Shown piece after piece: positions 12,117 through 50,162 of a stretch of DNA of 64,000 bases; the first letter of the stretch is position 1, and every line of letters begins with the position of its first letter. The notes under the pieces were generated by a model. That model did not search any database, had not been told where the DNA came from, and worked only from the letters and a program-made list of their open reading frames with translations. The stretch lies in assembly GCA_003252295.1 (NCBI GenBank), contig QKEV01000015.1:24242-88241 (forward strand), in the 5' to 3' direction. This DNA comes from a bacterium. Its GTDB lineage: Bacteria; Patescibacteriota; Minisyncoccia; Phycocordibacterales; UBA12088. The position numbers and the translations under genes were made by a program.

Positions 12117-13088
12117 ATGAAGATTCATCGTAGTTCAGAGCCAATAATTGAGCACATTATTCCTTTTCTTGACTACTGTGAGGTTGAGAAAGGTCTCTCA
12201 CAAAATACGCAGAAGAATTATCACCAGTACCTCCAACTTTTTACAAAGTGGCTTAGAGAGACTGGTAATGACTCCCTACTCCCCCACCAACTTGAGGGTA
12301 GTCATATTTGGGACTATCGACTATACCTCGCTCGTAAGTATAAGACGTCGAGGGGCGACTATCTTACAAAGAAATCTCAAAACTACTACCTCATTGCTCT
12401 TCGCGCATTACTAACCTACCTCACTGATCGTGACATCGAGACACTACCTCCATCAAAGGTGAAGTTGGCAAAGCAAAAGACTGAGGAGACGATTTCTTTT
12501 CTTGAGGTACGCGACATCGAGAAGATGCTTGCGATACCTGATACAACGACGTCGGTAGGTCTTCGCAATAGAGCTATCATGGAACTGTTCTTCTCGTCTG
12601 GTATGCGTATTTCTGAGCTCGTAGCACTCGATGTGGACCAGGTATCGTTTCTTGGTGATGGTAGTACCACGAGGACCTATGAGCTCTCCATTGTTGGTAA
12701 AGGAAGTCATGTGCGAACTATTTTTATCTCACCTCGTGCTGCTGAGTGGTTGCGTACCTACATCAAGAAAGAACGTCACGATGTACACAGGCCGCTCTTT
12801 ATTAACTTCCGTTCGAACTCAAAGAGTAGACGCCTTACTGCTCGTTCTATACAGAAGATGATCTCTCGCTATGCAATACTGGCTGGGCTCTCAAAGAAAG
12901 TGACGCCACACACCTTGCGACATACCTATGCTACTGACCTACTCTCCCACGGAGCGGACCTGAGGAGCGTACAAGAGCTTTTAGGTCACAAGAATGTCTC
13001 TACTACACAGATTTACACACATGTCACCAACAAACGTCTACGTGACATACATGAAAAGTTCCATGGTGGCAGTGATATGGAGCAGTAA
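12117..13088 (+). CDS. XerC/XerD-family tyrosine recombinase
   Basis: N-terminal SAM-like domain; SGMRISEL, GKG, HTLRH, LLGH, TTQIY catalytic motifs. Confidence 0.93.
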   Translation: MKIHRSSEPIIEHIIPFLDYCEVEKGLSQNTQKNYHQYLQLFTKWLRETGNDSLLPHQLEGSHIWDYRLYLARKYKTSRGDYLTKKSQNYYLIALRALLTYLTDRDIETLPPSKVKLAKQKTEETISFLEVRDIEKMLAIPDTTTSVGLRNRAIMELFFSSGMRISELVALDVDQVSFLGDGSTTRTYELSIVGKGSHVRTIFISPRAAEWLRTYIKKERHDVHRPLFINFRSNSKSRRLTARSIQKMISRYAILAGLSKKVTPHTLRHTYATDLLSHGADLRSVQELLGHKNVSTTQIYTHVTNKRLRDIHEKFHGGSDMEQ

Positions 13089-40482: not shown

Positions 40483-40790
40483 GTGTTTTCTCCATACATT
40501 TTTTTGAGTTAAACTACAATTTATACTTCAAGTTTCGCATGTTGGTTGCCAACCAGTATGGGCAGGTCCCCCCTTCCCTGTGTATTAACGAACAAACCAG
40601 AGGCCATACTACCCGGTATGACTCTATTATGTCAAACAAAACGTGTGTTTTTATGTTGCAGAATATGCCGTGAACATGTACAATCATCCCTAGTTTCGAA
40701 AGAAACAATACGTTCTGCGCCGTGTCCTTCGTGGCCATACATAACTTTAGTGAAGTGGGAGTAAAGAAGGAGTTGCGTAGAAACCAGCAT

Positions 40791-40863
40791 TCCGCGGTAG
40801 CTCAGCTGGTAGAGCGATCGGCTGTTAACCGATTGGTCGCAGGTTCGAGTCCTGCCCGCGGAG
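40791..40863 (+). tRNA. tRNA-Asn(GTT)
   Basis: Acceptor tccgcgg/ccgcgga, D arm gctc..gagc, anticodon loop ctGTTaa, T loop gttcgag; CCA not encoded. Confidence 0.96.
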
Positions 40864-40867
40864 CAAC

Positions 40868-40903
40868 TAGAAAAGCACTATTCTTAGTGCTTTTCTGCGT
40901 ATA
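40868..40903 (+). repeat. 36-bp terminator-containing direct repeat, copy 1
   Basis: tagaaaagcactattcttagtgcttttctgcgtata, identical at 45903-45938. Confidence 0.9.
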
Positions 40904-40940
40904 AGGGGAACGGGAATAGAACTTTTGTTATACTTTGCGT

Positions 40941-41489
40941 ATGAAAGCACCAAATATTGAAACAAACTCTTACCTAATAAGACCCTTTAAAACTAGCGAT
41001 GCGGAACTATGGCAGAAGTGGGATATAGACCCAGAAGTTCAGGCATTTATGCCTGAACCATTTAATGAAGTGCAAGATATTGAAGAGCAATACAAATACA
41101 TTGAAGAATGTGAAGCTGATGAAGAAGGGTGCTACTGGTCAATTGAGACTAAAAACGGAACTACTATCGGTACGGTGGCACTTACAGAGATCAATGAGTA
41201 TCACAAAATTGCCAACCTTGGTATAGTGATCGGTGATAAAAACCACTGGGGCAAGGGAGTTGCAACTGAGGTAATTACTGCCATAGTTGCACACGCATTT
41301 GAACAACTACATCTTTGCAGGATCAGTGCTGAAGTTGAAGAAGGGAACGTGGGAATGATAAAGGTTTTTAAAAAGGTTGGGTTTAAACAAGATGGACTTT
41401 TGGAATCAGCACGTCTGAAGAATACAAAACGTATCAATGTCCACCATTTTGGTTTTGTTAAACCTTCATGCAAAGTTAAATCAAAATAA
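40941..41489 (+). CDS. RimJ/RimL-type GNAT acetyltransferase
   Basis: IGTVAL, LGIVIG...WGKGVATE, N......KKVGF. Confidence 0.88.
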   Translation: MKAPNIETNSYLIRPFKTSDAELWQKWDIDPEVQAFMPEPFNEVQDIEEQYKYIEECEADEEGCYWSIETKNGTTIGTVALTEINEYHKIANLGIVIGDKNHWGKGVATEVITAIVAHAFEQLHLCRISAEVEEGNVGMIKVFKKVGFKQDGLLESARLKNTKRINVHHFGFVKPSCKVKSK

Positions 41490-41646
41490 TCAGATTACTT
41501 TTCCCTCCATCGCCCGAATGAACATCAACTGATTGTACATGCCCGTCATGTACTTTCCGTCACCCAGAATGCTTATAATAGCGTCATGTTCGCGGAGCTT
41601 GATAAAGCACGTTCAGAAATGAACGTGCTTTTGGTATAGTTTGGGT

Positions 41647-42441
41647 ATGGAAGCGATACTTATAACAATAGGACTATTTGTCAGAACCATACAACTACTA
41701 TTACCTGGTTTCTCAAAAATTGATGTTGCAAATATCTTTATTGCAATCGTTGCTGGATTATTTCTTGCGGGCAAGGCAGGAGCAATATTAGCTTTTCCAT
41801 TTGGTTTTGCCCTAATTATTGCTTTATTTTATAAAAATAAAATTTTACCAACAATTACCGAAGGGACTTTATTTTTATACGCTGTAGTTGCAACATATAT
41901 TGCTGTCAGGGACATTGAGTCATTTTCAGCACTATCTAGCACTTATTTAATATTGCTTTTGTTTCTTTCACTTTACGTACTTGTGGGTTTTTACCTTTGT
42001 GTAACAAAAACGAAAGTGCCATCCTTTTTGCAAATCATTTTAATGGTATTTTTTCTTTCAAATGCAATTTATATCGCGTACCAAAGTAGTCTAGTGTTTC
42101 TCATTACTGATAGTTCACCTTTAACACATTTATTGATTGGATATTTTGGTCTCTATTTTATAAGTCACATTTTGTATATCCTCGCCTTAATCCCACTTCC
42201 TGGGAAACATCAATCTTTTAAAGATAGGATGAAAGAGGTGAGAAAACACGCTCAATTCCTAGAAAAGAAATATTCGGATAAAGATATCAATATTAAAAAT
42301 ACTCTAGGTCTTGTTGCTGTAATTATATTGGCCTTCTCCTATAATTATTTCTACAATGATTGGATTACTAGTGTTGTATTACTCCTTATTATAGGTGGCT
42401 ACTTAGCCGCACCAAATAATTTTAAGTTATTAAGCAAATAA
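41647..42441 (+). CDS. multi-pass membrane hypothetical protein
   Basis: AT-rich ORF with many hydrophobic segments. Confidence 0.7.
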   Translation: MEAILITIGLFVRTIQLLLPGFSKIDVANIFIAIVAGLFLAGKAGAILAFPFGFALIIALFYKNKILPTITEGTLFLYAVVATYIAVRDIESFSALSSTYLILLLFLSLYVLVGFYLCVTKTKVPSFLQIILMVFFLSNAIYIAYQSSLVFLITDSSPLTHLLIGYFGLYFISHILYILALIPLPGKHQSFKDRMKEVRKHAQFLEKKYSDKDINIKNTLGLVAVIILAFSYNYFYNDWITSVVLLLIIGGYLAAPNNFKLLSK

Positions 42442-42568
42442 TTTATTTTACTCAATTCAACCTCTATCTTTTTCCAATTCAGAGTTCTGAACTTGTCCAG
42501 CACGGGAGCAATAAGAAAAAACAGTATCGTCTTGATACTGTTTTTTCTTATCTCGCTATCATGGTCAC

Positions 42569-42651
42569 GGACTCGAACCTATGGACCACATTTTCAAGGA
42601 GTGGAGCGACCATGAAAATGTAGGATCTCGACCATAGGGAGAGGCGAGTCC
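42569..42651. repeat. nested palindromic element abutting a tRNA 3' end copy
   Basis: ggactcg/cgagtcc, cctatgg/ccatagg and cattttca/tgaaaatg nested stems. Confidence 0.65.
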
Positions 42652-42687
42652 TGCTTGTGCGTCGAAACGAAGTGAAGGAGTGCCCGC

Positions 42688-42725
42688 GGAGCAATTGACA
42701 ATACCACTATCTAGTGGTATTGTTT
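42688..42725 (+). promoter_or_regulatory. 38-bp repeat with TTGACA-N17-TATTGT promoter inside a hairpin, copy 1
   Basis: ggagcaattgacaataccactatctagtggtattgttt, identical at 43325-43362; partial at 44021-44037. Confidence 0.7.
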
Positions 42726-42755
42726 GTTTAGTTAGCCTTTTGAAAAGGAGGAAGG

Positions 42756-43172
42756 ATGGAAACAATATATGCGATACTAAAAACATTAAAAAGTTTTGGG
42801 TCAGCAAAAGATGTTCCTTTTAGAAAAAGGTCACCTCAGGAAATCATCAGCTCGGGAGTATTTAGTGGATGTTCTGATGTAGCACTTGCTTTTGCGTATC
42901 TGTGCAAGAGTTCAGAGATAAGGGTTCATATTGTTGATACTTTTGACAAAATAATGTTCTCCAAAACCCTAGGTATGGAAGGTATAACAGGGCATGTGTA
43001 TTGTCAGGTATTTAATTCCGATGACACCTGGGTCATGGTTGACCCAACAGTAGGTGCCGTTGATGTTGATATCTGCTCGGATGGACGTGTCCCTATTGTG
43101 TCATACCTAGACAACAGTAAGCTCCTTTCATATGAAGAACTGTGTTTTATAAAAAGTACCTTTCAGGACTAG
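42756..43172 (+). CDS. transglutaminase-like (Cys-His-Asp) domain protein
   Basis: GCSDVALAF, GHVY, WVMVDPT. Confidence 0.7.
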   Translation: METIYAILKTLKSFGSAKDVPFRKRSPQEIISSGVFSGCSDVALAFAYLCKSSEIRVHIVDTFDKIMFSKTLGMEGITGHVYCQVFNSDDTWVMVDPTVGAVDVDICSDGRVPIVSYLDNSKLLSYEELCFIKSTFQD

Positions 43173-43324
43173 CCCGCCCACAACGAAAACCGTTGGAGGG
43201 CGGTTTTCTTTTTATGCAAAGGAGTTCTGAACTACTCTATTTTTAAATAACTCAAAAAACATACCTTGTTTCAATTCACGTTGTATTCTCTTCCAGTTCA
43301 CAGTTCTGAACTTGTCCAGTACGG

Positions 43325-43362
43325 GGAGCAATTGACAATACCACTATCTAGTGGTATTGTTT
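43325..43362 (+). promoter_or_regulatory. 38-bp promoter/hairpin repeat, copy 2
   Basis: Identical to 42688-42725. Confidence 0.7.
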
Positions 43363-43428
43363 TGTTTGGCTAAAGTCTGTTCCTACGGTAATTGAATCAC
43401 AAATCATTTAGCATGCTTGGAGGAATAA

Positions 43429-43938
43429 ATGAAAAGTATAGAATATACTGAAATTGCTGGTCATGATAATCTGAATAAGTTTTTAAACGACAGAAATAAA
43501 ATTATCTTAGAATGCAACGATGCGATTCGTAAAGTTGCTAACAAGTTAATTATCAAAGCGAAAGATGAAAGGATTACACTCTGCCGGTTACCTTTGAAAG
43601 CAGTGTTGTTTCGCACAAAAGAAGACCGTGAAGCTAAACGTAATAACACTTTCATCAACTATGGTGAGTATCATGTGGATGAACTTGAACTGTATTACGT
43701 GGAATTTTTTGTACACAACGAAGCAAGAGTTGCTGGCAATATAGGACTCATTATTTCTGGAAAACAGCCAGATCGAACTACAGGTGATTTTAGTTATATT
43801 TGTGGTTTCGAGGATTTTGATTACGTTGATTTGTCATGGGGAAAGAACTGGTTCTTTTTAAACAAAAATGACTATTTTACGTTTAAGGAAGTAGTCTTGA
43901 ATTTTAAAAAGGAACTACCCTCTTGCGTAGTGCAGTAA
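43429..43938 (+). CDS. hypothetical protein
   Basis: 169-aa ORF with SD ggagga and downstream hairpin. Confidence 0.65.
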   Translation: MKSIEYTEIAGHDNLNKFLNDRNKIILECNDAIRKVANKLIIKAKDERITLCRLPLKAVLFRTKEDREAKRNNTFINYGEYHVDELELYYVEFFVHNEARVAGNIGLIISGKQPDRTTGDFSYICGFEDFDYVDLSWGKNWFFLNKNDYFTFKEVVLNFKKELPSCVVQ

Positions 43939-44125
43939 AATACGTACAAAAAACCTGTCTAGTAGCCTGTCTCTGGACAGGTTACTTTTTATATACACGT
44001 TCGAACATCGTCCCACGCTCGGAGCAATTGACAATACAGTAGTAAAATGACATTGTTAATTTTGGATAATTTCTGTTTTTTACTATGTAATAAATTTAAA
44101 AAACTTTTGAAAACATGAGGTTGTT

Positions 44126-44296
44126 ATGAATCGACGAAGTGACAAGTTTTGTGCTCCACCACCAACATCTCGTTCCTATCCAGGTAAGGGTAGTTATCAG
44201 ATGGAATGTTTAAGGCGCAACGCAATAATCAAACTTCAGTTTGTTGTTGTAGCAGTTGTCATAGTAGCTATTTTGGTTACCCTGCCTTTTTTGTAA
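44126..44296 (+). CDS. 56-aa protein with C-terminal TM
   Basis: MNRRSDKF...FVVVAVVIVAILVTLPFL; SD gaggt; hairpin at 44334-44366. Confidence 0.55.
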   Translation: MNRRSDKFCAPPPTSRSYPGKGSYQMECLRRNAIIKLQFVVVAVVIVAILVTLPFL

Positions 44297-44390
44297 GTTT
44301 TGGTCGTTTGTATGTTTGTAGACAGAAACTATTAAGCCGCTTAGGAAGATGTAATCCAAGCGGCTTTAATTTGTAAAATATAACTGAATA

Positions 44391-44433
44391 ATGGGGTCTG
44401 ACCCCGTTTCATAAAAGGTGACTGACCCCTTTT
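44391..44433. repeat. pair of short REP-like palindromes
   Basis: ggggtctgacccc and aaaaggtgactgacccctttt. Confidence 0.45.
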
Positions 44434-44647
44434 TTCCTTGCTGTTTCTCTCTAACAAGGACCAGGAAAATTTTCTGGCCCTTTTGCGTTACAAGTGTCTT
44501 AGGGGTAAACCGCTTTGTTTAATCAATGAATGAACATGCCATGCCTGCCCGGCACCCTTTGTGGTGTCTCGGGGCATGTTCATTGGATGCTGCGGAGCTT
44601 GATAAAAAAACATATAAAATAAATGTTATTGGTGTATTATAGGATAT

Positions 44648-44776
44648 ATGAAATTTGAAGAAGTGCATTACCAAGAGCCGGTTCCAGAAATGGAAAGTTT
44701 TGAAAAAGTTGACGACTTTCTTGAAAATGAAGAAGGGGTCCTTGCAACTCTTCGTAAAAAAACAAAAAAGAGGTGA
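44648..44776 (+). CDS. 42-aa small protein
   Basis: MKFEEVHYQEPVPEMESFEKVDDFLENEEGVLATLRKKTKKR; its stop overlaps the SD of the next gene. Confidence 0.45.
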   Translation: MKFEEVHYQEPVPEMESFEKVDDFLENEEGVLATLRKKTKKR

Positions 44777-44780
44777 TAAC

Positions 44781-44948
44781 TTGGAAGCAGTAAATGTAGA
44801 ACACAAAGAAGATTTAGTTCTTGGTTTTGTTGGACCTCTAACTGATGAATTTTCTTCACAGATGCAACCGCACAATGCAGAAAATTTTGGCTGCGTAGAC
44901 TGTATTGATTGTGTATGTGATGTAGGTCCTTGCGATTGCGACACTTAA
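44781..44948 (+). CDS. 55-aa peptide with Cys/Asp-rich C-terminus
   Basis: TTG after gaggtg; ends GCVDCIDCVCDVGPCDCDT; hairpin at 44972-44998. Confidence 0.6.
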   Translation: MEAVNVEHKEDLVLGFVGPLTDEFSSQMQPHNAENFGCVDCIDCVCDVGPCDCDT

Positions 44949-45032
44949 GTCGCTTAAAAGTTAATCTCAACATACTGGCCATTTTCTTTGGCCAGTATTA
45001 TTTTATAATCAAATAAACATTTTAAAAAGATA

Positions 45033-45722
45033 ATGAGCAAGGTCATATTTGGCACTAATAAAGACAAAGATTTCAGAAACCATCTTATACAGCTGAGATG
45101 GCGAAATAAAACTGGTTTTACGTATTCTCCAGCAGAAAGTGAGTACTTTGATTCTCTGGAGAGATGTAAGGATGAGCTTGAGCAATGGAAGCTGTTTGAA
45201 GATTACTCACGTGAGTATTATTTGGAGGACAATAAACAGACAATTAATTCTGTTTTAAGTTATTTTCAAACATTGTGGAATAATGTTGAAGAAGTGTATG
45301 TTAAAAAAATGGAAGAAATGCACAATAAAGTATTTCCTTACAAAACAGTTTATGGTTATTTGTCTACGTCGCCAGGTGGCTGGGGCTTCAATTTAAATAA
45401 AAAAAACCCTTGGTTTGCATGTCCCAATAAAAAGAATGACAAGTTCCTAAAAGTTGCAATGCATGAACTCATGCATGGTTTTTTTATTGAATATTTTAGA
45501 GATGACTTAAAAGAAAAATACCGTTTAACTGACAACAAACTTTGGGATATTCAAGAGTCATTAACGGTGCTTCTAAATATTGAATTAGGTGATATTCTGC
45601 CTCACAAAGACTTGGGGTATCCACAACACAAAGAGTTACGCGAAGAAGTTAAGTCGGTATGGTTAGAGACAAGTGATATTGATGAGGTCCTGCGACGTGC
45701 AAGTCAATTTACTAAAGGGTAA
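45033..45722 (+). CDS. HEXXH-motif putative zinc metallopeptidase-fold protein
   Basis: HELMH followed by downstream E (IQESLT). Confidence 0.7.
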   Translation: MSKVIFGTNKDKDFRNHLIQLRWRNKTGFTYSPAESEYFDSLERCKDELEQWKLFEDYSREYYLEDNKQTINSVLSYFQTLWNNVEEVYVKKMEEMHNKVFPYKTVYGYLSTSPGGWGFNLNKKNPWFACPNKKNDKFLKVAMHELMHGFFIEYFRDDLKEKYRLTDNKLWDIQESLTVLLNIELGDILPHKDLGYPQHKELREEVKSVWLETSDIDEVLRRASQFTKG

Positions 45723-45902
45723 TACCTTTGACTATTTTGTTTATACAAACGAAATGTGTTTGTAATTATTAAAAACTAATTTTAGTTGTTCTCTAACGAT
45801 AAATTTTGTTGTTGTAATGCTGATGCAACAGGACTTCTTTCCAGTTTTCTTTCCCATTCTACCCAGTTCACGTTTATAAAGGTGCTTAGGTGTTGGAGCC
45901 CT

Positions 45903-45938
45903 TAGAAAAGCACTATTCTTAGTGCTTTTCTGCGTATA
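45903..45938 (+). repeat. 36-bp direct repeat, copy 2
   Basis: Identical to 40868-40903. Confidence 0.9.
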
Positions 45939-46050
45939 GGGGGAACAGGATTTGAACCATACTAAATACTATATAGTAAATATAACAATATTATGCTAAA
46001 ACACAGGTAGAAAAATAAATGACCACAATACCTAATATCAAATATGGAGG

Positions 46051-47232
46051 TTGTTGCATATGCAAACTGATCAAGTTTTGTCGGCACTGTACGAGTGTTT
46101 TCGTGGGAAGGGTTGGAGGTTATATACCTGCACTACATGTAATAATCTCATTTTCTCAAAAAATGCGAAAACACTTTGTTGGAGAAGGAAAGAATGTGGG
46201 CAAGAAAAAAAGTTTTTGTCATTACCAAAACAGAAAGCGATGGTAGTTCCGGGGCAAATCAAGGATGTAATAGAAAAAGCTGCTACAAAAAAGGGTTACA
46301 ATCGCGTGGAAAGTATTCCACTTACCGCTAACCATGGGAAAACAGATTTAATTATTGCTGGTGTACAGCTGTATAACGATGTAATTCATGGGAAAGCAAT
46401 ACAATCTTGCTTTCCTGACCGTTGTGTAATATCTCAACCGTGTGTACGGATGCAGTTTGCTGATAAGGTTGGTAAAGTAGATGGTATTTCGACCGCATTT
46501 GTAAACACATGTACCGAGCACGTTGGAGCTACGGTTGTCGAACATGCATTTGCCGTGGATTTTTGGCTAGACGTGCTTTCATGCCTTGGTTTGCATGTGT
46601 GTGATGTGTCGCTGGTATATCGTACAAAGAAACGAAATTGGGGGACAGGTGATTTTCTTTCCCATGATTTATTTTTTATGTATGGTGATTTAGAACTGGG
46701 TGATGCTTCCTATGCAGTTGTCCCAACTAGGTGTGCAGGTGGTTCAGGGGTATTGCAGATTAGTGACGTAGGCTTTGGGGTAGAACGAATCGGATGGGCA
46801 ATCAATAAAACTGATACGTACTATGACGTGTTACAACCATGGGACATGCAGTATACGACAGAAGTTAACGATCTGTACCGTACACTTACGTTACTTGCTA
46901 TGACCGGTGTTAAACCTGGACCAAAAGGTGCAGGGTTACAGTTTCGTCGCCTTGCAAAACAATTATACCTTCTGACTCCAAACATCTTTTCATTTGGTCT
47001 TGTAAGTTACTATTTTCGGTATTGGGGTTCGTTTACGACATGTCTTTGTGGATTAGAAGTTTCTTCTTCTGTAATTTCTCGCGAGTATGATAGGTTGCGT
47101 AACAATGGGATCGCAAGTAACAATAATTGGCCTGCCCCAAAAAATGATGAGAGTACAGAAGAATACCTTGAAAGAATGGTGTATAGTAAAATAGTAACTC
47201 CCAGTGAGTTGCGTAAGATGTACACACCATGA
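46051..47232 (+). CDS. stand-alone alanyl-tRNA synthetase-like class II catalytic domain protein with N-terminal Cys cluster
   Basis: AGVQ, QPCVR...D.VG, STAF, DVGFGVERI resemble AlaRS motifs 2/3; no editing domain; likely ATG at 46060. Confidence 0.72.
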   Translation: MLHMQTDQVLSALYECFRGKGWRLYTCTTCNNLIFSKNAKTLCWRRKECGQEKKFLSLPKQKAMVVPGQIKDVIEKAATKKGYNRVESIPLTANHGKTDLIIAGVQLYNDVIHGKAIQSCFPDRCVISQPCVRMQFADKVGKVDGISTAFVNTCTEHVGATVVEHAFAVDFWLDVLSCLGLHVCDVSLVYRTKKRNWGTGDFLSHDLFFMYGDLELGDASYAVVPTRCAGGSGVLQISDVGFGVERIGWAINKTDTYYDVLQPWDMQYTTEVNDLYRTLTLLAMTGVKPGPKGAGLQFRRLAKQLYLLTPNIFSFGLVSYYFRYWGSFTTCLCGLEVSSSVISREYDRLRNNGIASNNNWPAPKNDESTEEYLERMVYSKIVTPSELRKMYTP

Positions 47233-47918
47233 AAAAACAAAAACTAAAGCTATACTTGTCTGGGGGTGGTGACGAAACACAGTCATTCGCCCTCGACAAG
47301 CTTTTTTTTACTTCAATTCCTGAAAATGGAAAGGTTTTGTATATACCTATAGCTTTACGTGGTCACAAACTCTTTTTAAATGCACATATGTGGTTTTCTG
47401 GTGTAGTAAAGAAACATGGTCGTGATGATATACAGGTTGTGCGTTGTGATGATGTTGACACAATAACAATTAAGAAAATATCTCTGTATGATGCTGTGTA
47501 TATAGGTGGAGGAAATACTTGGTCACTTATAAAAGAAGTATCTGAAGCTGGTTTTGATGAAGTGTTAAAAAAATATATAACAGAAGGAGGGGTGGTATAC
47601 GGCGGGAGTGCTGGTGCAATTCTTCTTGGCACTTGTATTGATACAAGTGATGATGAAAATGTTGTGAAATGGAATAATATAAATGGATTAGATCTTATTT
47701 CTCCTTACTCAGTGGTTTGTCACTATACGGAAGTCATGGAGAAACGATATTCTGGTTGGGCAAACAAACATGGACCTATTATTTGCATTCCTGAAAATGC
47801 AGGGATGTACACAGAAGGTAACAGTTTGGTAAATTGTGGTAACGGTATGATAACCGTTTTTGATACTTCTGGAAAAAAAATAGAATACTCTGCAAATGAG
47901 TGCTTAATGTTCGAATAA
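47229..47918 (+). CDS. peptidase S51 (dipeptidase E-like)
   Basis: YIPIA, YIGGGNT, GGSAGA, CHY; overlaps the upstream stop (ATGA). Confidence 0.85.
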   Translation: MKKQKLKLYLSGGGDETQSFALDKLFFTSIPENGKVLYIPIALRGHKLFLNAHMWFSGVVKKHGRDDIQVVRCDDVDTITIKKISLYDAVYIGGGNTWSLIKEVSEAGFDEVLKKYITEGGVVYGGSAGAILLGTCIDTSDDENVVKWNNINGLDLISPYSVVCHYTEVMEKRYSGWANKHGPIICIPENAGMYTEGNSLVNCGNGMITVFDTSGKKIEYSANECLMFE

Positions 47919-47968
47919 ACTGTAAAAGCACTTCGGGTATCGAAGTGCTTTTATTGTCAAACCAGTTC

Positions 47969-49225
47969 TCAGTAAAGGATGCATTTACCTTCAATGATTT
48001 CCTGAGAAAGAACAGAAAGGTTTTTCATAGTATCAATGTAAATATCTTTCACTGTATCTTCGTGCCTCCCGAGTAGTTTGGGTCTGTTTATTTCTATAGA
48101 AGCCATCCAAGGATCATCCAGGTTTCTGCCCATCTGGGATGTGATAAACACCTTACATTCTGTGTTTATTGCATTGAATACATTGTCCGCAATTCTTTGT
48201 GCTGCTGCTGTGTACAGTTTTCCAACATGGTAAATAGGATTTTTGCCACAACATGCCTCCATACTCATGTTTCTTGTAAACGGGATAATGCCGTTATGTC
48301 GGTTCCCTCGACCTACCACACCTTCGTCACCGCTTTCGATGGCACTTCCTATGGCAGTTAAGTAAAAATCTTGACGAGCCGCATTATCACGAGTATTTAA
48401 CTCAACTGAGTAGTTGTAGTACGGATACATTGTCTTTGCGTGTCCCAGTATTATCTCTGAAACCTCTTGAAGAGATTTGCGATAAAAAACCAGGGAGTTT
48501 GTATACGCAGCGACAAATGGTATACATGCGGTGATTTTTACGTTTCTGCCATTTCTTACTGACATAACCTTGATGTCAGTACCAACATAAGGATGCTCCT
48601 TTTTAAAACCCTTAAATTCGTTGAGTTGGTTTTCGATAGCAATGGTAAGTAGTTCTATTTCGCTTAACGGAGCATACGCCACAGCAGTTGAAGTGTCGTT
48701 GGAGCGGAGATCATTGTCGTGATAACGGGCAAATTTTATGTTCGGTACTGTAAAAAAATGCCCGCGTTCATTTTTTGTATTACCGTCCTTGCTATGTACA
48801 ACCCCCGGTCCGGGTGCCATATGAGTGTTGTCAATAATTGTTAGCCATTGTTCAACGTCAAGGAGCGGCATTACAGCTTTAAAGTGTTTCTTTGCAGCAT
48901 TGCTCGCGATATCAAGATAAGGTACCTCGCGTCCTTCAAAGTCTTTAGTAAAACGACAGTTCAGGTATAGGTGTATCGGACGTTCCATAAATCCTTTACC
49001 AAACTGAACGTGTGAGGCTCCTCCAGCAAGTGCAATTTTGTCCACCATGTGTCGTAACACCACACCGTGTTCATTAAGAGTGTATTGTGAATATGCCTGT
49101 GAAATTTTTTCAGCAATTGTGTCACAGAGTGTGTCTGGGTGACCTATTCCCTTTCGTTCCACCACCTCAAACGGTGTTTCTGAGCAAAGTGTGTTTTGTT
49201 GAGCAATAACTGTAAAATTGTTCAT
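47969..49225 (-). CDS. archaeal-type S-adenosylmethionine synthetase
   Basis: EVVERKGIGHPDTLCD, NDTS, GTDIKVM, ESGDEGVVGRGNR, GKNPIYHVGKLY. Confidence 0.88.
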   Translation of the reverse strand: MNNFTVIAQQNTLCSETPFEVVERKGIGHPDTLCDTIAEKISQAYSQYTLNEHGVVLRHMVDKIALAGGASHVQFGKGFMERPIHLYLNCRFTKDFEGREVPYLDIASNAAKKHFKAVMPLLDVEQWLTIIDNTHMAPGPGVVHSKDGNTKNERGHFFTVPNIKFARYHDNDLRSNDTSTAVAYAPLSEIELLTIAIENQLNEFKGFKKEHPYVGTDIKVMSVRNGRNVKITACIPFVAAYTNSLVFYRKSLQEVSEIILGHAKTMYPYYNYSVELNTRDNAARQDFYLTAIGSAIESGDEGVVGRGNRHNGIIPFTRNMSMEACCGKNPIYHVGKLYTAAAQRIADNVFNAINTECKVFITSQMGRNLDDPWMASIEINRPKLLGRHEDTVKDIYIDTMKNLSVLSQEIIEGKCILY

Positions 49226-49571
49226 CGTATCTCTCCTTTAGGTTTCCTTGATTGTGAGCTTCTCTTTTCTGCACCTGTAATAACACGTTTATTTTACTAT
49301 TTCAATAGTAGAGCTTTGTCTTCGGTAAGTGCAATACATAAACTTTGTATATTTTTTTGCACTGTCTTTCACTTCACAGTTCTGAACTTGTCCAAGAGTG
49401 GGAGTAAAGAGATTAAGCACCAGAAATGGTGCTTTTTAATATCAGCTTAAAAATTACGATATATTGACAAAATAGATATTTATGATTATATATCAAAGGT
49501 TTTGTCATGGTGACACTTTCATGGAGATGGTGCACCACTTTTCAAAAAACATATAGAAAAAGGGGAAACAC

Positions 49572-50162
49572 ATGAACAAAGTGCTCGTAGGACTTCTTGT
49601 AATCGTTGCAGTGGTTGTAGTAACCGTTTGGACTGGCTACAATGGCATCGTAACGAAGGATGAGGATGTCAGTAAGTCGTGGAGCGAAGTACAAAATCAG
49701 CTTAAACGGCGGTCAGACCTTATTCCAAATCTTGTTAAGACCGTTGAAGAGTATGCAAAGCATGAGCGCGGTGTGTTCAATGAGGTTACCGAGGCTCGAG
49801 CAAAAGTTTCGCAGGCGATCAACATCAATGCATCAGACCTGGCAAACAACCCTATGTTGCAAAAGCAACTCAGTGAAGCTCAGCAAAGCTTGAATGCTTC
49901 CCTGAGCCGACTCATTGCAGTATCGGAAAACTATCCAGATCTCAAAGCGAACCAAAACTTCCTCAAGCTCCAAGATGAGCTTGCTGGGACGGAAAATAGG
50001 ATTGCGGTTGCACGTGGTCGTGCTATTGATTCGACGAACAGCTACAATGCTTCCCGTCGCCGGTTCCCTGTAAATCTGCTTGCAAACTTCTTTGGTTTCG
50101 GAGCCAAAGAGTATTACAAAGCAGAGGAGAGTGCTCAGGCGGTGCCGGTTGTATTCAACTGA
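49572..50162 (+). CDS. lemA: LemA family protein
   Basis: LKRRSDLIPNLV, ENYPDLKANQNF, ENRIAVAR. Confidence 0.93.
   Translation: MNKVLVGLLVIVAVVVVTVWTGYNGIVTKDEDVSKSWSEVQNQLKRRSDLIPNLVKTVEEYAKHERGVFNEVTEARAKVSQAININASDLANNPMLQKQLSEAQQSLNASLSRLIAVSENYPDLKANQNFLKLQDELAGTENRIAVARGRAIDSTNSYNASRRRFPVNLLANFFGFGAKEYYKAEESAQAVPVVFN

Follow-up and report, generated by a model that had tools for sequence, protein, structure and literature searches.

The 64,000-nucleotide window analyzed here (GenBank assembly GCA_003252295.1, contig QKEV01000015.1, positions 24,242 to 88,241 of the forward strand) comes from a bacterium of the order Phycocordibacterales (Patescibacteriota) and contains, 3′ of its tRNA-Asn gene, an array of about seven gene cassettes. 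The cassettes measure 0.6 to 3.5 kb, most of them 0.6 to 1.3 kb, and no large serine recombinase (LSR) gene accompanies them. Short reading frames, or tails, that open at the seams between cassettes are identified here, by sequence comparison, as displaced C-termini of LSRs whose own attachment site (attP) lies inside their gene. The clear repeats are therefore probably attR-type junctions, each made of the last ~35 LSR codons and a GGAGC core, and they were likely left by serial elements that have since lost their recombinase.

Junctions are numbered by the last base of GGAGCxx: J0 at 40866 (the tRNA itself), J1 at 41600, J2 at 42510, J3 at 42694, J4 at 43331, J5 at 44027, J6 at 44600, J7 at 45901, and J8 at 49407. 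The repeated motif ...AGTTCTGAACTTGTCCA-N6/7-GGAGC... occurs above chance and is restricted to the tRNA-Asn locus within the 1.1-Mb, 20-contig genome, in which tRNA-Asn is present as one copy among 40 tRNAs. Its exact form GTCC-N7-GGAGCAA is found three times (40849, 43314, and 44010) against a chance expectation of 0.03, and three or more copies appeared in 0 of 100 shuffles. An earlier interpretation drawn from the letters of this stretch (the sequence-only reading) had placed the tRNA 3′ end, with the same spacing, at four further sites; two of these are exact (43314 and 44010), the site near 49390 (GTCCAAGAGTGGGAGTAA) has one mismatch, and that near 41583 (GTCATGTTCGCGGAGCTT) has three. 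The copy with a 6-nt spacer that it described is present at 42495, as are its exact copies of the 17-mer AGTTCTGAACTTGTCCA at 42483, 43302, and 49378. Other exact repeats are the 12-mer CCCGCGGAGCAA (40855 and 42683), GGAGCAATTGACAATAC (42688, 43325, and 44021), and the 15-mer GCGGAGCTTGATAAA (41592 and 44592), and a segment beginning in the last bases of tRNA-Asn (40860-40922) is repeated at 45895-45957 (63 nt, 89% identity). The 17-mers and a 28-nt hairpin have no further exact copy in the 20 contigs, where only matches with 3 mismatches, at chance level, were found. G+C content is 0.355 to 0.388 over 42 to 48 kb, compared with 0.41 to 0.46 in the majority of the window's remaining 2-kb bins, and an Rfam scan of 40500-49700 (E ≤ 1) returned the tRNA, two sub-threshold chance matches, and nothing else.

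The minus-strand translations of the tails were reproduced, with LLRGQDSNLRPIG as the antisense frame of the tRNA. Where six related tails had been proposed, three are clear (J2, J4, and J8) and two are degenerate (J5 and J7), and the sixth site, at 41600 (J1), has no tail. J1 and J6 were also considered as tail junctions (41583 and 44592), and their translations bear no convincing likeness to the others; only the core GGAGCTT is common to them, and they are retained as core-only sites. In other genomes of the same order the tail motif is conserved at the protein level while its codons vary synonymously (AGA/CGA for Arg, CCC/CCT/CCA for Pro, GAC/GAT for Asp), and in all cases it is only at the junction that the frame opens.

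The identity of the tails follows from their full-length relatives. A profile of nine tails (A1) was searched against 5831 longer candidate proteins taken from a database of 5.8 billion proteins. Fourteen proteins matched at E ≤ 1; six of them are 533 to 597 amino acids (aa) long, with E values from 2.3e-9 to 9.2e-4, and the other eight are proteins or fragments of 84 to 138 aa. All six long proteins contain PF00239, five contain PF07508, and two contain PF13408; by hmmscan the Resolvase, Recombinase, and zinc ribbon domains (PF00239, PF07508, and PF13408) occur together in P0008, P0004, and the LSR of locus L048, and the first two occur in P0014. The match lies at the very C-terminus of the full-length LSRs (...WLPLVDKFRTANW..IKS.LQFSGIL.LFP.L.LQN, followed by the stop). 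Overall identity among the six LSRs is 23 to 30%, and 16 consecutive invariant columns fill the tail, such that no part of the LSR is better conserved across subfamilies than the displaced tail. The J4 tail itself matches residues 488-533 of LSR P0006 (E 0.0056).

The check that the sequence-only reading had suggested, a comparison of its tails with recombinase C-termini, thus returned full-length LSRs, and it is complemented by codon-level conservation in 68 tails. In these tails with their short upstream frames, third codon positions are the most variable near the core (0.56/0.37/0.87 bits), and the same holds over codons +9 to +30, which had no part in the selection of the tails (1.14/0.90/1.40 bits). 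Ser at tail position +17 is conserved via different codons, and 54 of the 68 tails are open across the 34 codons checked. This variation by codon position indicates that the tails diverged as coding sequence, be it before or after their deposition.

The arrangement of LSR genes in relatives explains how a tail may be separated from its body. Through the LSRs, 77 loci were fetched from species-representative genomes, in which LSR bodies, tails, and tRNAs were located by script; by locus title every named lineage is Patescibacteria or Candidate Phyla Radiation (CPR), except L074 (Cytophagales). In 10 loci (L022, L024, L026, L037, L042, L043, L048, L080, L081, and L093) the LSR body ends 13 to 15 nt from an antisense tRNA-Asn and matches P0008 from residue 1 to ~499, without the last ~35 to 40 codons that form the tail. 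For nine of these 10, a tail preceded by no more than a short open frame is found on the LSR's own strand, 4.5 to 8 kb ahead of its start. The integrated elements span 5 to 9 kb, with the LSR body at attL and the tail at the far end (attR), which places attP inside the LSR gene. In six further loci, all that is left of the LSR next to tRNA-Asn is a fragment of ~90 residues from the end of the body. The notion that an integrase carries attP in its own gene was therefore well founded, with split LSRs found in relatives, but the SSV1-type tyrosine integrase cited as its model does not apply, the enzyme being an LSR. The same LSR family is also found at tRNA-Gln (L039, L066, and L077), where the integrated C-termini read antisense tRNA-Gln.

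From these loci the structure of the attachment sites can be outlined. With a slash marking the junction, attL reads tRNA...GAGC/CA-GTTAGGACTA..AGCTAGTTCTAGTAC, the reverse of codons ..SPFNLVLELAxxPNW, and attR reads ..CCAATTnAGAGTTCTGAACTTGTCCAnnnnnGGGAGC/ followed by unrelated sequence, the P arm side being ..AGTTCTGAACTTGTCCAnnnnnGGGAGC/. An integrated LSR ends in antisense tRNA (..PNWLRGLDSNQRPIA in L037); the proposal that the tails are in register with the antisense tRNA frame is borne out in that the integrated recombinases of relatives end in that frame. An uninterrupted P+P′ site is present in L033. The only sequence common to attL, attR, and attP is GAGC, and in L026 and L048, whose tRNAs end in ..CCCGAGC, only GAGC is common to attL and attR, which points to GAGC as the crossover. 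Conservation of the P arm extends to GGGAGC; on the right of GAGC, the B′ arms of different sites are unrelated in sequence. P and P′ sites appear to form a short, imperfect dyad, with AGTTCTGAAC in P and AGTTCTAG in P′. From the comparison of attL with attR, the GAGC core probably lies within the tRNA-Asn 3′ end, the tail DNA would represent the P half-site, and the B′ arm appears to be permissive. The tRNA-Asn 3′ end in the window now looks like an unoccupied attB.

Arrays of this type recur among the 77 loci, with at least two P arms in 14 and at least three in 3. The 16 units between junctions have a median length of 798 bp, and the longest open reading frame (ORF) is co-directional with the tRNA in 12 of them. 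Eight of 12 intact elements carry one to four tail-proximal genes in cassette orientation, and all 16 ORFs that oppose the LSR in intact elements are such tail-proximal, cassette-oriented genes.

Within the window, the array comprises the following features.

40791..40864, plus strand: tRNA-Asn(GTT), called by ARAGORN and Rfam (72.7 bits); its 3′ end ...CCCGCGGAGC carries the GAGC core (J0).
40867..40922, plus strand: leader T0, hairpin AGAAAAGCACTATTCTTAGTGCTTTTCT and about 25 nt; a copy, T0′, lies at 45895-45957.
40935..41489, plus strand: cassette 1 gene, GNAT acetyltransferase of 184 aa (PF13302, 1.5e-29).
41592..41606, plus strand: J1, GCGGAGCTTGATAAA, core-only with no recognizable tail; a hairpin is next, at 41605-41632.
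41641..42441, plus strand: cassette 2 gene, 266 aa, no family match, hydrophobic and membrane-like as judged by eye.
42402..42515, minus strand: J2 tail (..APVLDKFRTLNWKKIEVEL..), P arm at 42474-42509.
42511..42551, plus strand: hairpin T2, an 18-bp perfect stem that begins the native-type tRNA trailer.
42567..42656, plus strand: structured element of 85-90 nt, part of the tRNA trailer module, with no function assigned.
42645..42694, plus strand: J3, copy of the tRNA-Asn 3′ end (CGAGTCCTGC, a 28-nt insert, CCCGCGGAGCAA); B-type arm.
42695..42723, plus strand: leader P3, promoter-like TTGACA-17-TATTGT and a hairpin; copies at 43332-43360 and, looser, at 44028.
42756..43172, plus strand: cassette 3 gene, 138 aa, weak transglutaminase-core match (PF01841, 1.6e-4, 22.3 bits against a cut-off of 23).
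43215..43334, minus strand: J4 tail QLLPVLDKFRTVNWKRIQRELKQGMFFELFKNRVVQNSFA, full length and open; P arm at 43293-43329.
43429..43938, plus strand: cassette 4 gene, 169 aa, no family match.
43989..44027, minus strand: J5 degenerate tail LLRAWDDVRTCI, ending in a stop; GTTCGAACATCGTCC-N7-GGAGCAA, standard spacing.
44126..44296, plus strand: cassette 5, predicted ORF of 56 aa.
44592..44606, plus strand: J6, GCGGAGCTTGATAAA, core-only.
44655..45722, plus strand: cassette 6, ORFs for 97 aa and for a 229-aa protein.
45785..45901, minus strand: J7 diverged tail (GLQHLSTFINVNWVEWERKLERS...), core GGAGCCC.
45895..45957, plus strand: leader T0′, the copy of T0.
46051..49225: cassette 7, with the three genes that follow.
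46051-47232, plus strand: paralogue of the alanyl-tRNA synthetase (AlaRS) core, 393 aa, all AlaRS matches far under curated cut-offs.
47229-47918, plus strand: S51 (PepE/cyanophycinase-like) peptidase, by Pfam.
47969-49225, minus strand: archaeal-type S-adenosylmethionine (SAM) synthetase, by Pfam.
49369..49410, minus strand: J8 tail SLLPLLDKFRTVK, with a stop after 12 codons; P arm at 49379-49405, core GAGT.

J2, J4, and J8 are the junctions that fit the P-arm pattern, and the P arm of J4 matches the quality of those in intact elements. J2 is one base short between GTCC and GGAGC, so that the frame is shifted at the junction. J7 is only 21% identical to J4 and retains F, VNW, R, and L at tail positions via different codons, with F9 and W14 invariant; a J5-like motif is present in the congener G004. 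The 3′ side of J8 consists of a hairpin (49415-49434) and then LemA. Directly 3′ of J3 and J4, the TTGACA-17-TATTGT sites are the two best sigma-70-type matches of the region (the P3 site scores 10/12, the best), and P3 is identical over 37 of 37 nt between two of its three copies. More generally, TTGAY-N15-19-TAnnnT within 45 nt past the junction occurs at 15 of 80 junctions in the 77 loci, compared with 0.6% of random 45-nt windows. Two details of the J4 region can be added: its tail has AGTTCTGAAC twice (43223-43239 and 43302-43318), once as FRT codons and once as the last codons (..VVQNS), the copy in the last codons being either a possible further binding site or a coincidence of the conserved LQN end, and a terminator hairpin CCGCCC...GGGCGG at 43174-43215 is 97 to 98% identical to terminators 3′ of unrelated genes in three genomes of other families or species (G280, G125, and G001).

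The sequence behind J2 provides a separate view of the locus. A trailer module consisting of a hairpin, the 85-90-nt element, and a copy of the tRNA's own 3′ end is found not only here but also behind tRNA-Ile, tRNA-His, and two tRNA-Arg genes, and the element lies 46 to 80 nt behind each of these five tRNA genes of the genome. The element copies lie at window 42567-42656, C7:38618-38704, C1:69211-69297, C10:93331-93417, and C10:163331-163450. In each, the left arm is antisense to the T-arm of its tRNA, and the element runs into the direct copy of the tRNA 3′ end; at J3 this copy reproduces tRNA-Asn from the T-loop onward, with a 28-nt insert. The copy that the sequence-only reading had located at 42681-42694 is thus genuine, with CCCGCGGAGCAA exact at 42683, but it is the tRNA 3′ copy of the trailer module and not a tail. 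Among five sequences, 8 of 26 predicted pairs of the element are compensatory. It has no Rfam match; a covariance model found it in 26 of 101 related genomes, and of the 19 best foreign matches eight lie 30 to 142 nt behind a tRNA and four overlap a tRNA-Gln 3′ end. The possibility that the element is the coding tail of another recombinase was rejected, as its copies differ by compensatory pair changes. Since the right side of J2 is native tRNA trailer, 40867-42510 is an insert between tRNA-Asn and its trailer, which serves as an internal control for the attR assignment.

The type of system can be placed by the enzymes and sites that accompany the array. No LSR with catalytic, Recombinase, and zinc ribbon domains is present in the window, and the array accordingly consists of remnants and is not an element in its own right; a cassette-like array without a recombinase had indeed been described by the sequence-only reading. 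The nearest tyrosine recombinase lies at ~12498-13034 of the window, 28 kb from the array, and PF00589 is otherwise found only on contig C10. The array is not an integron, with no IntI-type integrase or attI beside it and no attC at the seams, which hold LSR tails and match no Rfam family. Nor is it a classical tRNA island of a tyrosine integrase, with no integrase beside the tRNA and with the tRNA 3′ end truly copied only at J3, as part of the trailer module; the enzymes of the relatives belong to the serine recombinases (PF00239). The junctions do have the form known for LSR elements, that is, an arm, a short core, and a host arm without a long direct repeat, and the units show tandem accretion, being in direct order at one target, with the same att-type site and some without a recombinase. 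Integration that splits the integrase and alters its C-terminus is seen in relatives, and the window holds the tails only.

From these observations, it can be proposed that an element would integrate at the GAGC of tRNA-Asn via the attP inside its LSR gene and thereby displace the tail to its far end. The recombinase module would subsequently be lost, and one or more tail-proximal accessory genes would stay as a cassette, after which any sequence behind the tRNA could serve again as attB by virtue of the permissive B′ arm. As the tail-proximal genes of intact elements are already cassette-oriented, loss of the module would leave the layout seen here, and as B′ arms are unrelated between sites, the shortened locus would again act as attB. 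Some cassettes probably came as blocks, carried by an element that used a distal attR for excision in one host and its own attR for excision here. That the elements arrived one after another, with the rest of each deleted, is what the array suggests.

Several observations weigh against this serial origin. No LSR of the tail family is present in the window or the genome, where the best match has 23% identity, so that nothing here could now move the cassettes; apart from the J4 tail, the matches of a whole-genome search for LSRs are confined to contigs C9, C6, and C1 and the beginning of C16. According to PMC3783163, attL is not a target of known LSRs, and serial integration would consequently need an unobserved and fairly tidy removal of the P′ arm at every step. 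The leader duplications (T0 and T0′, the three copies of P3, and the 15-mer of J1 and J6) are not predicted by serial integration and deletion. Two of the clear junctions look defective (J2, a base short, and J8, with GAGT and an early stop), J5 and J7 are degenerate, and J1 and J6 have no tail. Megablast of the 77 loci and the array (at least 85% identity over at least 250 bp) gave no direct sign of cassette transfer, linking the window array to none of them; its 18 matches are all among other loci, at least 13 of them inside the LSR/tRNA end. Counts across loci overstate the support, as related genomes are not independent. In public sequence data the stretch occurs in two runs, probably one source sample filed twice, covered as assembled Logan contigs at 90% likeness. 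Among these contigs no excision joint, alternative joint, or circle was found, but they break at the repeats (40874-42573, 42544-42717, 42696-43354, and from 45909) and so are uninformative on excision. Loose contig ends at 42457, 45407, and 46095 are single contigs that may belong to other organisms.

The four LSR loci just named deserve a remark of their own. C9:72181-73716, C6:13666-15252, C1:89210-90598, and C16:1-600 represent two full-length and two fragmentary LSR genes of other families; the fragmentary ones sit at contig ends, and none of the four has a tail.

The leader duplications are better accommodated by a variant of the serial origin that does not exclude it and that we consider possible, though rather doubtful. 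Here the array would be a platform for active exchange: an LSR element sited at the tRNA, where it forms attL, could excise with any downstream attR, collecting cassettes and a new tail, and in the next host excision with the proximal attR could leave the cassettes behind; tails would then be reusable half-sites and exchangeable last exons instead of inert scars. Inserts that start with a copy of the target's downstream arm are predicted and are seen in T0 versus T0′ and in P3 at J3, J4, and J5, and distal-attR excision in a related donor followed by proximal-attR excision here would create exactly such duplications. Locus L053 has a full-length LSR body with four tails in direct order, and partial LSR fragments stand beside the tRNA with three tails in L072 and with two each in L085 and L089. 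The units look self-contained, given the frequency of promoter-like sites after junctions, and solo tails retain their coding signature, 54 of 68 being open, but this signature may simply be inherited from recent LSR genes. The same kind of movement has been proposed in passages of PMC3146451 for the integrase-less ssrA islands of Dehalococcoides. Against these points, no joint or circle was observed among the assembled contigs and no shared cassette among the 77 loci, damage is seen in two (J2 and J8) of the three clear tails, and no recombination directionality factor was identified. With a similar degree of reserve, it could be speculated that the system is a serine-recombinase counterpart of the integron, with tRNA-Asn as its dock, half att sites at cassette ends as spare last exons, incoming elements that gain or shed cassettes through their choice among attR sites, and swapping of tails. 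The tail might even set direction, with integration by the full-length enzyme and excision by the enzyme lacking its tail.

Free cassettes of the integron kind, in which circles formed from neighboring junctions re-insert at the tRNA with an LSR acting in trans, would fit the small and uniform units (median 798 bp in the loci, mostly 0.6 to 1.3 kb here, mostly of one gene), which are bounded on one side by a conserved site and on the other often by a promoter. Such circles would, however, hold P and B′ only, in attR-like form, the P′ arm of intact elements is absent from every junction here, and the LSRs studied to date pair attR with neither attR nor attB (PMC3783163), all of which makes this route very improbable. 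An origin without recombination, as a locally duplicated regulatory or terminator repeat or a tandem duplication of one gene end, would agree with the hairpins and promoter-like sites that adjoin the repeats and with copies confined to one locus, but it has next to no likelihood given that the motif is an LSR C-terminus (E down to 2e-9 in the 5.8-billion-protein database), in many lineages sits apart from an LSR body located at tRNA-Asn, and separates mutually unrelated genes.

Comparison with known systems clarifies which parts of the serial-integration proposal have precedents. Integrons line up small cassettes, mostly of one gene, in a single direction with a recombination site per seam and operate with IntI, attI, and the attC hairpin. 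The array resembles such a row but has no IntI, attI, or attC, its cassettes often bring a promoter, and it is anchored at a tRNA. In SSV1-type integrases attP likewise lies within the integrase coding sequence, and the Mx8 and SSV1 integrases are tyrosine recombinases. For Mx8 IntP/IntX, passages of PMC6070905 describe attP in the integrase coding sequence, integration providing a new 3′ end and the old one being found at the other prophage end. The Mx8 and SSV1 cases differ in that no cassette arrays are described for them and in that a serine recombinase is involved here.

The ssrA islands of Dehalococcoides, formed by the serine recombinase DsiB (McMurdie et al. 2011, PMC3146451), are similar in having tandem units behind a single-copy essential small-RNA gene and a serine recombinase of ~540 residues, on the reverse strand by attL. 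The passages concerned also describe many units without an integration module, proposed to be cis-mobilizable by accretion, and a conserved motif on the element side of every repeat. The islands differ in their target (tmRNA, at the T-loop), a 20-bp direct repeat, and the large size of the islands, and these passages report no split recombinase gene; here, the target is tRNA-Asn, the core is GAGC only, attP lies inside the LSR gene, and units are mostly of 0.6 to 1.3 kb with one gene. In the staphylococcal cassette chromosome (SCC/SCCmec), as far as the accounts consulted describe it, LSR elements with CcrAB or CcrC also stack at the 3′ end of an essential gene, rlmH (orfX), some units being recombinase-less, but the target is a protein gene and units are tens of kb long. 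Any pair of SCC boundary sites may excise, and the att site is not known to lie inside ccr. Phage serine integrases (A118/LI, phiC31, and Bxb1; PMC3783163 and PMC3556126) resemble the present system in sites that appear short and in partners identical only over a tiny core, and in the literature surveyed neither an attP inside the integrase gene nor an apparently unconstrained B′ arm is described for them. Serine-recombinase stacking at one essential gene (ssrA islands and SCC) and an att site inside a tyrosine integrase (Mx8 and SSV1) are thus known. The literature surveyed contains no description of an attP-split LSR combined with a four-base core at tRNA-Asn, a B′ arm that appears unconstrained, and, in CPR bacteria, cassettes of less than a kilobase with promoters of their own, and no paper on LSRs with attP inside the gene or on tRNA-Asn arrays in CPR.

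The ultra-small genomes of CPR/Patescibacteria are thought to have few routes of gene gain. Here, one tRNA gene would be a landing pad with at least seven accessory units. An attachment site at the recombinase's own gene end is an unusual design that gives the free and the integrated LSR different tails, which could be a handle on the control of direction. These LSRs also seem to need only one specific host half-site, which is relevant to the mining of serine integrases for genome engineering, and the P arm of 27 to 33 nt is a simple annotation marker to delimit cassettes in hundreds of metagenome-assembled genomes.

The cargo is accessory, as judged by its low G+C, by the SAM synthetase, and by the different genes of a congener. 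Pfam names the GNAT acetyltransferase, the S51 peptidase, and the archaeal-type SAM synthetase, with weak matches below cut-off to the transglutaminase core and the AlaRS catalytic core, and finds no family for the remaining cassette proteins; PADLOC returned no match for nine cassette proteins, and every NCBIfam match lies under the curated cut-off. The AlaRS-core paralogue overlaps the S51 gene by 4 nt, and the two therefore probably form one operon. No second SAM synthetase is detectable in this genome; among 10 genomes of the genus, the archaeal type is seen in one, bacterial MetK in two, and neither in seven. Homologues of the S51 peptidase occur in L092, L091, L027, and L044, and those of the 229-aa protein in L092 and L067, both of which hold tails; S51 homologues, too, are found in tail-bearing loci. 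A DNA search of the order with the whole array gave matches in 16 of 301 genomes (E ≤ 1e-8), all to single genes (GNAT, SAM synthetase, or tail), with no syntenic match among the 301. The sequence-only reading had also suggested comparing the tRNA-Asn locus across relatives, and G004, with a tRNA-Asn 98% identical, does carry other genes behind it together with tails of its own; this was the one congener that gave 2.5 kb for comparison, as in 5 of 6 congeners the contig ends within ~2.5 kb of tRNA-Asn or the tRNA has an intron. The intron is of group I (RF00028) and splits tRNA-Asn at the anticodon loop in three congeners, at L104 238-532 (G006, 84.4 bits by Rfam), L100 4387-4699 (G007, 60.0 bits), and L103 2139-2493 (G003, 45.9 bits, below the gathering score of 50). 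ARAGORN misses all three of these intron-split genes.

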